This document shows, one piece after another, positions 1,699-23,235 of a DNA stretch of 25,814 nucleotides. Position 1 is the stretch's first letter; every line of letters begins with the position of its first letter. The notes beneath the pieces were generated by a model, which was not told the DNA's origin, searched no databases, and saw only the letters and a program-made list of their open reading frames with translations. Source of the stretch: a virus (taxonomy: Duplodnaviria; Caudoviricetes); the IMG/VR virus record IMGVR_UViG_3300043416_000038, positions 1 through 25,814 of that record; one strand, given 5' to 3'. The translations under genes and the position numbers were made by a program.

Positions 1699-1965
1699 AT
1701 GGTTAATAAAAAAGAAATGTCTTGCAATAGTCCAAAAAGGACTCCAGATCATCCTAAAAAGTCTCACATTGTTAAGGCTTGTTATGATGGTAATGAAAAG
1801 ATCATACGTTTTGGAGAACAAGGAGCTAGTACTGCTGGTAAACCTAAGTCTGGCGAATCTAATAGAATGAAAGCAAAGAGAGCGTCATTTAAAGCGAGAC
1901 ACGGAAAAAATATAGCTAAAGGAAAGTCAAGTGCTGCTTATTGGAGTGACAGAGTGAAATGGTGA
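1699..1965 (+). CDS. Small basic conserved phage protein
   Basis: 88 aa, K/R-rich. The motif IRFGEQG...RASFKARH...SAAYWS is a pattern I recognise from uncharacterised viral proteins. Confidence 0.8.
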   Translation: MVNKKEMSCNSPKRTPDHPKKSHIVKACYDGNEKIIRFGEQGASTAGKPKSGESNRMKAKRASFKARHGKNIAKGKSSAAYWSDRVKW

Positions 1966-1987
1966 TATAAAGTTAAATGGTAATATT

Positions 1988-2155
1988 ATGATAAGAAAAT
2001 CAAAAGGATTTGGCGACTCAGTAGAAAAGCTAACTAAATATAGTGGGATAAAAGCATTAGTTAAAAAAGTATCTCCAAGTTGTGGATGCGAAGCTAGACA
2101 AGAAGCTTTAAATAATCCAAATCTATTAGTTAACAAGTTGTTTTATAAAAAATAA
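1988..2155 (+). CDS. Small basic protein with CGC motif (not in ORF track)
   Basis: Hand translation: [55 protein letters not shown] (55 aa). It fills the gap in the operon, and KSKGxGD...GIK...CGC..R...LN is a recurring phage pattern. Confidence 0.8.
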
Positions 2156-2159
2156 TATT

Positions 2160-2291
2160 ATGCCGTTAAAGAAAGGAAATAGCTCTAAAGTTATTAGTGC
2201 TAACATTAAGACAGAAATTAAAAGTGGTAAACCACAAAAACAAGCTATAGCTATTGCTTTATCAAAGGCTGGTAAATCTAAAAAAAAATAA
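2160..2291 (+). CDS. Small basic protein (not in ORF track)
   Basis: Hand translation: [43 protein letters not shown] (43 aa). The QAIAIALS motif is common in small phage proteins. Tightly packed between its neighbours. Confidence 0.85.
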
Positions 2292-2293
2292 TT

Positions 2294-2821
2294 ATGTCAG
2301 TAGATCCAAAAATTAAAACAAAGGTAACTATAGACCCAGATACTGGAGCTAGAGTTTTCAATCAATCATGGAGTTCTGAGATTAAAAAGAAAGAACCAAT
2401 AGTAAGAAAACCAGTTGGTAGAGATACTTTTGTAACTGAGAAAAAGATAGTTTCAAAAACAGTAGTTAAACCTACTGCGAAAGAAACAAATGTAAAAACT
2501 TCTGGAGGAAGAAAGTTTAGTGAAGTAGTATCTCCTAAACCAGCTAAAGCTGTCGGAATGGAATTAAAAGCAAAGGCGGATATTAAAGAAAGAGCTCCTC
2601 AATCTATAAAAAAAGAAAAGATTAAAGTGAAAGCTGAAATGGATGATAAAGGGCTTTTAATTAATAATCCAGGAATGAAGCTTGAAGATATAAAAAGAAA
2701 GATTGAGAAAAACAAAGAAGCTTCAATCAGAAAAAGTAATCGATCTGTTAAAGATAGTGGTGGATTATTTAGTAATGAAAAAAATAGAAGTTCAAGCGCT
2801 TGTCAAAGCGGATGTAGATAA
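2294..2821 (+). CDS. Lysine-rich hypothetical protein
   Basis: 175-aa ORF in the operon, low complexity, with a C-terminal CQSGC. Confidence 0.75.
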   Translation: MSVDPKIKTKVTIDPDTGARVFNQSWSSEIKKKEPIVRKPVGRDTFVTEKKIVSKTVVKPTAKETNVKTSGGRKFSEVVSPKPAKAVGMELKAKADIKERAPQSIKKEKIKVKAEMDDKGLLINNPGMKLEDIKRKIEKNKEASIRKSNRSVKDSGGLFSNEKNRSSSACQSGCR

Positions 2822-2838
2822 TTATAAAAAAACAAATC

Positions 2839-3003
2839 ATGAAAAAAGCAATGCCTAAAAAAGTTGTTGAAAAAGCAACAGGAGAAAAATACCCATCTAA
2901 GAAAGCTATGATGAAACACGAGAAATCAGAGGGTAAAAAAGTACAAAGTAAAGAGCAGTCTGCTTTTTTAAAAATGATAGCTTCTAAATCTAAAAAGAAA
3001 TAA
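2839..3003 (+). CDS. Small basic protein (not in ORF track)
   Basis: Hand translation: MKKAMPKKVVEKATGEKYPSKKAMMKHEKSEGKKVQSKEQSAFLKMIASKSKKK (54 aa). A-rich initiation region; fills the operon gap. Confidence 0.8.
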   Translation: MKKAMPKKVVEKATGEKYPSKKAMMKHEKSEGKKVQSKEQSAFLKMIASKSKKK

Positions 3004-3006
3004 GAA

Positions 3007-3306
3007 ATGTTACAGCCTAAAAAGAAAAGTACAAAAGTAATAGTAACTCCAAAGTTTACTATGTTTGGTCAAGCTAATGCTGCTAGAAATAACTCAGAAG
3101 GAGAATACACTGATACACCTGCTAAAAAACAAGATAGTCTAGAATATAGAGCTGGATTTAATTTAGGTGTTAGAAACAAAATGAAAGGTGAAAACAAAAA
3201 AATGTACCAAGAAACTGAGTTTCAAAAAATGGGTAGATGGGAAGGTCAGAATCACTCTTTTAAAAACAAAGACGCAGAGGTTATCTCTAAAAAAATAAAT
3301 AAGTAA
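3007..3306 (+). CDS. Basic hypothetical protein
   Basis: 99-aa ORF, TAATG-coupled to the next gene. Confidence 0.75.
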   Translation: MLQPKKKSTKVIVTPKFTMFGQANAARNNSEGEYTDTPAKKQDSLEYRAGFNLGVRNKMKGENKKMYQETEFQKMGRWEGQNHSFKNKDAEVISKKINK

Positions 3307-3557
3307 TGGGATTAGGTAGAACTGCTAAGTATTATAGAGAAAATCCAGAGGCTAGAAAAAAGCATCAGAAAACTTCTAAAGAAGCAGCAGCTAAACCTGA
3401 AGCTATTAAGAAAAGAATGGAAGCTAATAAGTTCAATAGAATGAAAGGAACTTATGGTAATGGAGATGGAATGGATGCTAGTCATGTCAACGGAAAGGTT
3501 ACTAAACTAGAGAAAGCAAAAACAAATAGAGCTCGTGGTGGAGCTTTAAAAAAGTAA
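3306..3557 (+). CDS. Small basic protein, possibly a minimal or degenerate HNH-like fold
   Basis: GDGMDASH....NRAR resembles the GDGxDxxH...NR core of small phage HNH-like proteins. Confidence 0.6.
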   Translation: MGLGRTAKYYRENPEARKKHQKTSKEAAAKPEAIKKRMEANKFNRMKGTYGNGDGMDASHVNGKVTKLEKAKTNRARGGALKK

Positions 3558-3561
3558 GTGT

Positions 3562-3897
3562 ATGAAAGACAGTTGCTATAAAAAAGTAAAGGCTCAGTAT
3601 GATGTTTTTCCATCGGCAAGAGCTTCTCAGGCAATTGCTAAATGTAGAAAGGCTAGCGGATCTGTTAAAAAAACAGAGAAAGGAACTAGTCTTAAAAGAT
3701 GGGAGAGTGAAAAATGGACAGATACAAAAACTGGGAAACCATGTGGAGCTGGTGGTAAAAATGAGTATTGCAGACCTAAAGTTAAAGTATCTTCTAAAAC
3801 TCCTAAAACCATATCTGAGATTAGCCCTTCAAAATTAGCGGCTAAGAAATCTGAAAAGAGCAGAGTTGGTATGGGTAAAAGAGTTTCTAAAGTATAA
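3562..3897 (+). CDS. Basic conserved phage protein with four Cys
   Basis: 111 aa. The pattern PSARAS..IAKCRK...LKRW..EKW.D...GKPCG......YCRP is one I recognise from uncharacterised viral proteins. Confidence 0.8.
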   Translation: MKDSCYKKVKAQYDVFPSARASQAIAKCRKASGSVKKTEKGTSLKRWESEKWTDTKTGKPCGAGGKNEYCRPKVKVSSKTPKTISEISPSKLAAKKSEKSRVGMGKRVSKV

Positions 3898-21739: not shown

Positions 21740-21766
21740 AAAGGTAGACTTCGGTTTACCTTTTTT
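21740..21766 (+). terminator. Intrinsic terminator after MCP
   Basis: AAAGGTAGAC-TTCG-GTTTACCTTTTTT, with a cUUCGg tetraloop and six Ts. Confidence 0.9.
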
Positions 21767-21770
21767 GTTT

Positions 21771-21778: not shown

Positions 21779-21782
21779 CATG

Positions 21783-21852
21783 TACGAATTTTGATTTTTT
21801 CTCTCATTTTTTTTAAACCACTAATTAGTTTATTCTTTTTAGTGGTTTTTTT
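21783..21852 (+). ncRNA. Candidate ~70-nt small RNA
   Basis: Bounded by the promoter at 21771 and the hairpin/U tract at 21815-21852. The 5' part is U-rich and single-stranded. Confidence 0.4.
21815..21852 (+). terminator. Intrinsic terminator
   Basis: AAACCACTAA (21815-24) pairs with TTAGTGGTTT (21839-48), followed by further Ts. Confidence 0.7.
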
Positions 21853-21880
21853 GTTTATATAAAAATAAGTTGTATATTTG
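21850..21880 (+). promoter_or_regulatory. Bacteroidota sigma-A-type promoter of the leader/tRNA operon
   Basis: TTTG (21850-53), a 19-nt spacer and TATATTTG (21873-80): the full -33/-7 consensus. Confidence 0.85.
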
Positions 21881-21884
21881 CACA

Positions 21885-21956
21885 ATGAAAAATACAAAAA
21901 ACAATAGTCTACGTCACCCGCAACAAGATAATCTCTTGGGTGGAACTAGTGTGTAG
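21885..21956 (+). CDS. Putative attenuator leader peptide MKNTKNNSLRHPQQDNLLGGTSV
   Basis: The ATG is 5 nt after the -7 element. Codons 9-14 are CTA CGT CAC CCG CAA CAA, cognate to all five downstream tRNAs, and overlap attenuator segments. Confidence 0.8.
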   Translation: MKNTKNNSLRHPQQDNLLGGTSV

Positions 21957-22011
21957 TATTGTTATATAAATACATTTAAACTAAAGCCATCCATATCGGG
22001 TGGCTTTTTTT
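21913..22011 (+). promoter_or_regulatory. Putative transcription attenuator with alternative 1:2, 2:3, 3:4 pairings
   Basis: Segment 1 CACCCG (21915-20), segment 2 TGGGTGG (21937-43), segment 3 GCCATCCA (21986-93), segment 4 GGGTGGC (21998-22004) plus T7. Confidence 0.75.
21983..22011 (+). terminator. Intrinsic terminator (attenuator 3:4) directly upstream of the tRNA genes
   Basis: AAAGCCATCC-atatc-GGGTGGCTTTTTTT, ending 4 nt before tRNA-Pro. Confidence 0.85.
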
Positions 22012-22015
22012 ATTT

Positions 22016-22088
22016 CGCGTAGTGACAAAATTGGTTACGTGCCCGCCTTGGAAGCGGGAGACTGTAGGTTCGAGTCCTGCCTATGCGA
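22016..22088 (+). tRNA. tRNA-Pro(UGG)
   Basis: Acceptor CGCGTAG/CTATGCG, C1-G72, A73. Anticodon arm CCCGC-CTTGGAA-GCGGG. T arm GTAGG-TTCGAGT-CCTGC. D stem is poorly paired. Confidence 0.85.
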
Positions 22089-22093
22089 CAAAA

Positions 22094-22165
22094 TACAGTA
22101 TGATGCAATGGTTAGCATACGAGACTTTGACTCTCGCTATCTAGGTTCGAGTCCTAGTGCTGTAA
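22094..22165 (+). tRNA. tRNA-Gln(UUG)
   Basis: Acceptor TACAGTA/TGCTGTA (U1-A72). D arm ATGC/GCAT. Anticodon arm CGAGA-CTTTGAC-TCTCG. T arm CTAGG-TTCGAGT-CCTAG. Confidence 0.95.
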
Positions 22166-22170
22166 CAAAT

Positions 22171-22244
22171 GGTGTTATTGCGCTTAATGGTAAGGCGGTT
22201 GGACTGTGAATCCAATTATATGAGTTCGAATCTCATATAACACC
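22171..22244 (+). tRNA. tRNA-His(GUG)
   Basis: Encoded G-1:C73. Acceptor GTGTTAT/ATAACAC. Anticodon arm TTGGA-CTGTGAA-TCCAA. T arm ATGAG-TTCGAAT-CTCAT. Confidence 0.95.
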
Positions 22245-22247
22245 CAA

Positions 22248-22319
22248 TTTAGTATAGTTTAATGGATAGAACAACAAGCTACGAACTTGTAAATGGGAGT
22301 TCGAATCTCTCTACTAAAA
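22248..22319 (+). tRNA. tRNA-Arg(ACG)
   Basis: Acceptor TTTAGTA/TACTAAA. D loop with A20. Anticodon arm ACAAG-CTACGAA-CTTGT. T arm GGGAG-TTCGAAT-CTCTC. Confidence 0.95.
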
Positions 22320-22324
22320 CAAAT

Positions 22325-22406
22325 ACCGAAATGACATAAAAACGAATTGGCAGAGTATCCAGTCTTAGAAACTGGGGTTTTATGGGTTCGAGTCCCATTT
22401 TCGGTA
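22325..22406 (+). tRNA. tRNA-Leu(UAG), atypical (short variable region, enlarged D region)
   Basis: Acceptor ACCGAAA/TTTCGGT, A73. Anticodon arm CCAGT-CTTAGAA-ACTGG. T arm ATGGG-TTCGAGT-CCCAT. Confidence 0.75.
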
Positions 22407-22423
22407 CAAATAAAATAAATTCG

Positions 22424-22431
22424 TACTTTTG
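22424..22431 (+). promoter_or_regulatory. Bacteroidota-type -7 promoter element (TACTTTTG-CA)
   Basis: TAnnTTTG between the tRNA array and the ATG at 22459. Confidence 0.75.
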
Positions 22432-22458: not shown

Positions 22459-23235
22459 ATGGCAAGACCAGTTACAAAGAAGGAGCTTCCTTCTAAGAAA
22501 GAATTCGAATTTAAAGATAGAGTATATCTGTTAAAAGGGAATTCAACACCAATCTCTTATATGCTTCGTTCAAAGCATTCACCAAACAAACCATTATTGT
22601 ATTTTGACCAAGAGTTCAAAGTAAATCGTGCTTTAAGATGGAGTGATAATCAAACATCTCCTTTTATTGACGAGCAAGATGGATACGCTATAGCAACACC
22701 AATCATTTTTGAAAATGGTTCTTTGTACGTTAAGAAAGAACAAGTTGAGTTGCAGAAGTTTTTATCTATCTATCATCCAGATAACAACAATGCTTATTAC
22801 GAGTTTGACGCTGAAGAAAAAGCAGCTGAAGAGTATGATGAGTTAACAGCTAAGTTAGATGCTCAAAATACAGTAAGAGAAATGCCTATTGAAGACTTAG
22901 AAGCTATTGCTAGAGTATTATTGAAAGGCAAGGTAGAATTAATGACTTCTTCTGAATTAAGAAGAGATATGTTGATTTTTGCAAGTAAGAATCCACAAGA
23001 GTTTACATCTTTAGTTAATGATGATTCTATTAAGTTTAGAAACATTGCTATTAGAGCGGTTCAAATGGATATCATAAATGTAAGTTCTGATGGAAGAACT
23101 GTTAATTGGAGTGGTAAAGATGGTGGTAGAATAATCACTGTTCCATTTGGTGAGAATGCTTATTCTGCACTAGCCGCATTCTTTTTGACAGATGAAGGTA
23201 TGGATGTACTATCTGATATTTCAAACAAATTATAA
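22459..23235 (+). CDS. Conserved hypothetical phage protein in the structural region
   Basis: 258 aa, with its own promoter and terminator. No function recognised. Confidence 0.85.
   Translation: MARPVTKKELPSKKEFEFKDRVYLLKGNSTPISYMLRSKHSPNKPLLYFDQEFKVNRALRWSDNQTSPFIDEQDGYAIATPIIFENGSLYVKKEQVELQKFLSIYHPDNNNAYYEFDAEEKAAEEYDELTAKLDAQNTVREMPIEDLEAIARVLLKGKVELMTSSELRRDMLIFASKNPQEFTSLVNDDSIKFRNIAIRAVQMDIINVSSDGRTVNWSGKDGGRIITVPFGENAYSALAAFFLTDEGMDVLSDISNKL

Follow-up and report, generated by a model that had tools for sequence, protein, structure and literature searches.

A phage tRNA cassette for C-starting codons preceded by a candidate ribosome-stalling attenuator

The tRNA array and its upstream element

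The window analysed here is a whole IMG/VR virus record of 25,814 bases, a contig that represents a genome fragment without the early genes. A 455-aa protein encoded at 20343-21710 matches a structural protein of Maribacter phage Panino (57%) and of Flavobacterium elemo phages (51%), and was taken as the major capsid protein by its position. Since 83 of the 85 records matching this protein are named after Flavobacterium or Cellulophaga, the host is presumed to be a flavobacterium, and the DNA runs containing the window sequence place the phage in freshwater. Near the start of the window, a GroEL-like C-terminal fragment followed by a GroES-like ORF occupies 57-841, the fragment showing 83% identity to a contig in a Flavobacterium MAG; a series of short, very lysine-rich ORFs, one of them with DUF5872, lies at 1699-3897.

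Exactly five tRNA genes were found by ARAGORN in the window, with starts at 22016 (Pro-UGG), 22094 (Gln-UUG), 22172 (His-GUG), 22248 (Arg-ACG) and 22341 (Leu-UAG). All are on the plus strand and all carry A37: tRNA-Pro(UGG) at 22016-22088, with C1-G72 and A73; tRNA-Gln(UUG) at 22094-22165, with U1-A72 and A73 as in the Flavobacterium copy; tRNA-His(GUG) at 22171-22244, with an encoded G-1 and C73; tRNA-Arg(ACG) at 22248-22319, with A73; and a non-canonical tRNA-Leu(UAG) at 22325-22406, with A73 and without a long variable arm. The synthetase identity bases are intact in all five. A sequence-only reading of this DNA had described five loops with C32, G36 and A37 around the anticodons UGG, UUG, GUG, ACG and UAG, and no other tRNA in the array; the loops were confirmed as given, and the count of five holds across the whole window, itself a fragment of a genome that may hold further tRNAs elsewhere. 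Four of the five tRNAs score above the Rfam cut-off, while the non-canonical structure of tRNA-Leu puts it below (26.4 vs 29). This tRNA in fact starts at 22325, not at the ARAGORN position, and an insert of seven bases behind base 9 pairs with its short variable region. In 13 distinct homologues both insert-variable positions are Watson-Crick in 13/13, with three and two pair types, respectively (variants A-T, G-C and C-G), and the insert measures 7-8 bases. Homologues of this fold were located in L001, L082, L106, L523, L527, L529, L538, L545, L594, L596 and L598. One copy of the odd-fold tRNA has the anticodon UAA, and the fold was miscalled or overlooked by ARAGORN.

The array had been read as a minimal set for the whole row of C-starting (CNN) codons. 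One tRNA is indeed present for each amino acid of the row; by the wobble rule, Arg-ACG should not read CGG, and therefore at best 15 of the 16 codons are covered. CGG does not occur among the 6,783 codons of the 22 window genes, and CGC and CTC are likewise unused. CNN codons make up only 658 of these codons (9.7%), with TTA and AGA commoner than their C-starting synonyms, which agrees with the earlier statement that such codons are not favoured in this genome. C32 was shared by the five window tRNAs as described; it is not conserved in the related sets described below (kits), where 19 of 89 tRNAs have U32, and was rejected as a key trait.

A candidate leader-peptide attenuator lies 131 bases upstream of the array and had been overlooked in the sequence-only reading, despite the Salmonella mgtL precedent given there. 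Ahead of it, an intrinsic terminator (21740-21768, plus strand; 10 pairs and a T run) closes the major capsid protein gene and is predicted to insulate the cassette from upstream transcription. An RNA contig from run X15 ends close to this terminator, at 21780, a weak indication. A Bacteroidota-type promoter follows at 21850-21880 on the plus strand, composed of TTTG (21850-21853), a 19-base spacer and TATATTTG (21873-21880), which we take to be the consensus of the phylum; a sigma-70 promoter scan found none, as expected for Bacteroidota. The ATG of the leader ORF lies 4 bases after the TATATTTG box, so the transcript is probably leaderless, and a similar box stands 3-5 bases ahead of the start in 20 of 22 kit leaders.

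The leader ORF (21885-21956, plus strand) encodes 23 aa, MKNTKNNSLRHPQQDNLLGGTSV. Its codons 9-14 (21909-21926, plus strand) form a sensor run of six C-starting codons, CTA CGT CAC CCG CAA CAA, for Leu, Arg, His, Pro, Gln and Gln, that is, at least one codon for each tRNA of the array; the longest CNN run elsewhere in the window genes is three (6,783 other codons). Homologous leaders keep this architecture, with the CNN run at about codons 7-16, and differ otherwise in sequence. The sensor run overlaps region 1 of the attenuator. Region 2, TTGGGTGG (21936-21943, plus strand), was computed to pair either with region 1 or, as an antiterminator, with the 5' arm (21987-21993) of a switchable intrinsic terminator, which occupies 21983-22015 on the plus strand and ends directly before tRNA-Pro. 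A promoter, a leader with a CNN run and a terminator abutting tRNA-Pro thus give the anatomy of a ribosome-stalling attenuator, and we consider it very probable that the element is a transcription attenuator of this type.

The leader and terminator fold with a z of -4.9, none of 200 shuffles being equally stable. In a covariation test with 20 hand-picked leaders (ORF and terminator required, some related), the duplex of region 2 and the terminator reached -13.8 kcal/mol for cognate vs -8.4 kcal/mol for non-cognate pairs, and none of 100,000 permutations was as good. A switch model that rests on an assumed ribosome footprint gave an antiterminator pairing in the window of 0.7-0.8 while the A site is at any of codons 5-14, 0.5 for codon 15 and 0 from codon 16 onward; in nearly all of the 20 leaders this limit coincides with the last codon of the CNN run or comes just after it. 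When no ribosome is included, the window switch is modelled as off (0.04), with values from 0.01 to 0.99 for other leaders. Leader translation and the switch itself are predictions. The leader matches no Rfam family above the cut-off; the best match, Phe_leader (28.8 vs 55), covers the terminator part only.

Behind the array, a second promoter-like box, TACTTTTG (22424-22431, plus strand), presumably of the same consensus, is available for the next gene, and the cassette can therefore be regarded as a self-contained insert. An RNA contig from run X16 starts downstream of this box at 22460, again a weak indication. Two freshwater studies yielded RNA contigs that are nearly identical to the window; these cover the capsid gene and the downstream gene, and contigs of low depth span 22142-22315 and 22198-22403 in the array, bridging adjacent tRNAs, where DNA carry-over is possible. 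The contigs of X15 and X16 leave the leader uncovered, and contigs can neither rank genes nor show transcript ends or levels. In three loci that are near-identical to one another and close relatives of the window (L527, L535 and L539), the promoter, tRNAs and terminator are kept and the leader ORF is replaced by an unrelated RNA. In this RNA (L527:1119-1197) two short hairpins overlap a different terminator; it matches no Rfam family, was not found in 61 Flavobacteriaceae genomes, and is possibly a ligand- or protein-sensing switch.

Recurrence of the kit and base 37 of its tRNAs

The CNN-only kit recurs in unrelated phages. Cellulophaga phi19:1, an unrelated siphovirus with a complete genome of 57,447 bases, has the same five anticodons, all with A37, as its only tRNAs, which are 58-77% identical to the window copies. 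A 39,304-base contig rated 100% complete (G137) also has these five tRNAs only. Partial contigs (G001, G134-G136 and G872-G876) have 5-6 tRNA matches, all inside the cassette, and three others (G133, G140 and G141) have 1-2 matches outside it. The same kit is found in phi19:1 (Assiduviridae), Calle_1 (Pervagoviridae) and Panino. The genes flanking the cassette fall into many unrelated groups, which indicates that it moves as a unit. Among 80 capsid-related loci only one (L001) has tRNAs in the fetched flank, and a close relative with a complete genome (G002, 85% capsid identity) has none; therefore the kit is dispensable. In a tRNA-free relative (L002, from 11470 onward) the cassette site is occupied by an unrelated ORF, which by eye is endonuclease-like.

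In an automatic survey of 403 array starts, a terminator with a CNN-rich leader was present in 22 of 33 CNN-dominant arrays (2 of the 22 had been fetched by the leader motif), in 4 of 139 other arrays of at least three tRNAs, and in 1 of 231 smaller ones. A metagenome scan with the leader motif returned 117 loci, two of which gave kits. No plasmid match to the cassette was found, and 401 Flavobacteriales genomes held no full copy, with single-tRNA matches in eight. Calls for additional tRNAs that lack G36, among them Glu, Leu-UAA, Tyr and Ser, occur in seven of the 22 kits, and the leader codons follow these additions; the window kit is G36 only. Glu-UUC or Leu-UAA, neither of which is a TrmD substrate, was added in several kits. 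A further locus (L117:735-1340, oriented) carries tRNAs for Pro, Ala, Gln, Leu and His behind a sigma-70-like promoter, and CNN and Ala codons abound in its leader, which suggests that the attenuated-array design may also exist outside Bacteroidota.

TrmD requires G36-G37. Base 37 was compared between hosts and phages. One Flavobacterium genome in a single contig (G022) gave 49 Rfam matches, and 39 distinct sequences were read; in it, G37 is present on Pro-UGG, Gln-UUG, His-GUG, Arg-ACG, Leu-UAG and Leu-GAG, Arg-UCG has A37, and one odd Glu-like gene has G37. Across 61 Flavobacteriales genomes, G37 was found in 50/50 His-type rows, after 10 of 60 rows had been set aside by eye as other tRNAs or chance matches. 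Among 41 Flavobacteriaceae genomes, with rows classed by eye, G37 is on Arg-ACG in 40 and on Arg-UCG in 39; Gln was pattern-matched in 19 and Leu-UAG in 13, all matched copies having G37. The earlier statement that Bacteroidota His, Gln and Arg(ACG) tRNAs have G37 was borne out in the readable Flavobacteriaceae counterparts, and the same applies to Pro and Leu-UAG in G022. TrmD (PF01746) is encoded in both Flavobacterium genomes tested (G004 and G022), which stand in for a presumed host, and by analogy with work on E. coli and Salmonella the host G37 is probably methylated (m1G37) and needed. The proposal that the array replaces the entire class of TrmD substrates holds in so far as its G36 tRNAs all have G37-bearing host counterparts; it fails for host Leu-GAG and Arg-UCG, which have no copy.

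Among distinct viral genes, G37 and A37 were counted in 63 and 13 Pro-UGG, 9 and 8 His, 7 and 9 Leu-UAG, and 14 and 15 Gln tRNAs; Arg-ACG gave 0 with G37, 10 with A37 and one other. This sample comprises 122 loci with hosts pooled, and the search pattern is blind to base 37 of Pro and favours G37 Gln. With hosts pooled, A37 is the exception on phage Pro, frequent on His, Leu and Gln, and the norm on Arg, so the possibility raised earlier that A37 is simply the phage default does not apply to Pro-UGG and does apply to Arg-ACG (10/11). A phylum-wide pattern for Pro with A37 mostly caught Gln-UUG with G37 (25 loci checked).

In the kits, base 37 is A in 85 tRNAs, U in two and G in two (n = 89). 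In many searches one or two tRNAs had to be non-G37, and none was built for G37 kits; after removal of the tRNAs for which the fetching pattern prescribed base 37, 72 of 73 unconstrained kit tRNAs are non-G37 vs 18 of 35 in other attenuated arrays, one G37 Pro of L141 being lost by this step. G37 is retained in the attenuated arrays of L393 (Gln and Pro), L141 (second Pro) and L526 (Arg). The His tRNA of the closest relatives of the window has U37, and hence G appears to be avoided rather than A required: an A37-only set, as first described, is found in the window and in phi19:1, whereas for kits at large the rule is "not G".

Proposed function and rival explanations

The cassette is real, conserved and mobile, and it is probably of a sense-and-replace type. 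From its sequence features we think it likely to be an on-demand back-up for the host tRNAs with G36-G37, and the phage probably makes the kit tRNAs only when the host versions fail. In the proposed mechanism, a host-type promoter would give rise to a short transcript, and its leader would present the run of six C-starting codons to the ribosome. As long as the host tRNAs work, the ribosome would pass this run and cover region 2, and the terminator would halt transcription before tRNA-Pro. If Pro, Gln, His, Arg or Leu(CUN) tRNAs failed, the ribosome would wait in the run, region 2 would pair with the 5' arm of the terminator, and RNA polymerase would enter the five tRNA genes. The products would retain the synthetase identity bases and have no G37, so that TrmD would not be needed and the common feature of the host set would be absent. 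Their function as replacements is a prediction. It has been reported, in the available text of PMC8643618, that trmD mutants gain A37-bearing recoded Arg tRNAs and, citing Masuda et al., that loss of m1G37 leads to A-site stalling. Points that count against the back-up reading are the replaced leader ORF of L527, L535 and L539, the wide range of the ribosome-free model in other leaders, the attenuated arrays that retain G37, the kits with Glu-UUC or Leu-UAA, the A37 of chromosomal accessory arrays, and the lack of tRNAs in G002.

If the back-up reading is right, the foremost candidate for the insult, with a chance a little short of even, is a nuclease or tRNA-modifying toxin of the host that attacks G36-(m1)G37 loops. 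General tRNA damage, where A37 would only speed maturation, is a less likely insult, and a shortage of TrmD activity slightly less likely again. Taken as a whole, it is a tentative proposal that a flavobacterial defence or toxin not yet described inactivates tRNAs through G36-(m1)G37 and thereby removes the whole C-starting row, and that unrelated phages carry a 550-base cassette that uses ribosome stalling to sense the attack and provides tRNAs without G37, among them a Leu of unusual fold.

The explanation that competes best, though improbable in our judgement, is general insurance against tRNA damage, in which an ancestral full tRNA set of three attenuator-gated modules included the kit as one of them, A37 is simply what Bacteroidota accessory tRNAs have in the loop, and CNN-only genomes arose by module loss without G37-specific pressure. 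Calle_1 and G132 do have a full tRNA set in three modules, each behind its own codon-matched leader (one for A/G-starting codons, one mostly for U-starting codons, one for C-starting codons and Glu), and Panino has a CNN module with a leader and further tRNA blocks that are similarly sorted. The sensor is therefore general, with the CNN kit as one module that recurs. Such modular sets were located at L082:9000-12700, L884:15500-18100 and L1182:3380-6300. The G132 genome encodes an integrase and has its CNN module on the opposite strand. In 850 loci, 74 leader-terminator units were found, of which 61 passed filters; the share of leader codons read by the own array was 0.547 vs 0.282 when permuted (0/100,000), and the match also holds for the 39 non-kit units alone (0.536 vs 0.271; 0/100,000). 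In mixed accessory arrays on Flavobacteriales chromosomes, A37 on G36 tRNAs is common and base 37 is also altered on Asp and Glu, so that A37 may be inherited from that pool. Against the insurance explanation, two complete genomes and several partial ones have the CNN module as their only one, while 5/5 non-CNN modules checked, a small sample of fragments, are on contigs with 9-28 tRNA matches; most loops of the sister modules equal those of the host, whereas every CNN loop differs at base 37; and G37 is retained in 17 of 35 cases among other attenuated arrays.

Bacteroidota chromosomal arrays with A37 Pro (L1178, L1179 and L1180 in G229, G051 and G241, and L1183-L1191) are a possible source pool. 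Several of them lie behind units of a short ORF and a terminator, and the arrays of G229, G051 and G241 adjoin genes for RtcB, an RF-1-domain protein, RlaP, RNA ligase and a Band-7 protein; this proximity to RNA-repair genes counts in favour of the insurance explanation. In a Flavobacterium MAG, a 25-tRNA array (L1181, G004:C46) also stands behind a short ORF and a terminator, with G37 on Pro, His, Gln and Arg and A37 on Leu-UAG.

There is a slim chance that the leader senses amino-acid starvation or generally slow translation and that the tRNAs supplement codon supply. Classical leaders do sense uncharged tRNA, and a stall anywhere in codons 5-14 antiterminates in the model. However, Pro, Gln, His, Arg and Leu share no common pathway, extra tRNA would be no remedy for a lacking amino acid, and the low CNN usage of the window genes, with TTA and AGA outnumbering the C-starting synonyms, argues against a supply problem; the G36-only content and the loss of G37 would also be left unexplained.

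Marginally slimmer is the chance that TrmD is disabled or SAM depleted by the phage, for instance as a measure against restriction, and that the kit repairs the collateral damage. TrmD needs SAM and Mg2+ (PMC6335274, available text). A search for a SAM lyase, TrmD inhibitor or tRNase had been proposed from the sequence; a Pfam scan of 231 proteins from four carrier contigs and the window detected neither a SAM lyase nor TrmD or a tRNase, and a direct search of three carriers found no TrmD. The scan covered few of the large structural proteins, and most of the 231 are without a Pfam match, which leaves room for a novel inhibitor; the window is also a fragment that lacks the early genes. On the other hand, no protein is common to the unrelated complete carriers G132, G137 and G138, so a shared trigger gene was not found there; three carriers (G137, phi19:1 and G134) encode DNA methylases that themselves require SAM; and a self-made shortage would need no sensor. 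It is hardly credible that the cassette is now functionless, as a selfish or decaying insert, because, patchy as it is (one of 80 capsid-related loci, with another ORF at the site in L002), it shows compensatory changes in terminator, antiterminator and tRNA stems, intact identity bases and recurrence in several phage families.

Comparison with known systems and significance

Classical attenuators control the trp, his, thr and ilvGMEDA amino-acid operons. Like these, the cassette has a short leader ORF, a run of sensor codons, 1:2, 2:3 and 3:4 pairings and an intrinsic terminator, and like thr and ilv it would sense several amino acids together. It differs in that the output is tRNA genes instead of enzymes, the codons are grouped by first base instead of pathway, and the element is phage-borne and probably leaderless. 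In Salmonella mgtL-mgtA, the speed of leader translation likewise reports m1G37-dependent decoding, according to the available portions of PMC6335274 and PMC8643618; mgtL acts through Rho, with mainly Pro codons and a Mg2+ transporter as output, whereas the cassette has an intrinsic terminator and replacement tRNAs for a whole class.

Phage tRNAs with an anti-defence role (van den Berg 2023, PMC10264068; Azam 2024, PMC11555353; partial texts) resemble the kit in that altered anticodon loops could replace damaged host tRNAs. Rescue in Azam et al. depends on a strong promoter, unlike the attenuator-gated kit, and the accessible text of PMC10264068 does not mention G37, TrmD, attenuation or a leader. 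The literature on PARIS/AriB, OLD, Schlafen and HepS defences, as far as accessible, names no G36-G37 nuclease, and the substrates of P2-OLD have an invariant A37. The cryptic trn operon of Anabaena and bacterial L-arrays (PMC8421152, partial text) are similar to the cassette as silent tRNA arrays induced by impaired translation; the Anabaena operon is co-regulated with rtcB and is regulated by direct repeats in its promoter, and the text available mentions neither sorting by codon class, as in the cassette, nor attenuation or a leader. The polycysteine sORF attenuators of mycobacteria (bioRxiv 10.1101/834739, partial text) also use a leaderless short ORF as a stalling sensor; they control translation initiation of protein genes and respond to one amino acid. 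No account of attenuator-gated tRNA genes, of a G37-directed defence or of a host nuclease that would cut the host tRNAs and spare these phage copies was found in the accessible full-text literature, which included PMC12445682, PMC13191261, PMC13056530 and PMC13043305 and few subscription papers.

The purpose of phage-borne tRNAs is a decades-old matter of debate. If a leader names the codons of the tRNAs it gates, it would show which shortage the phage guards against, and it may be used as a reporter. The stand-alone CNN kit singles out the class of TrmD substrates and thus predicts either a host weapon directed at G37 or conditions of infection under which an essential methylation fails. Since phi19:1, Calle_1 and Panino are cultured carriers, the idea is testable now, and natural Pro, Leu, His, Gln and Arg tRNAs with A37 would probe the bypass of TrmD by tRNA sequence alone.
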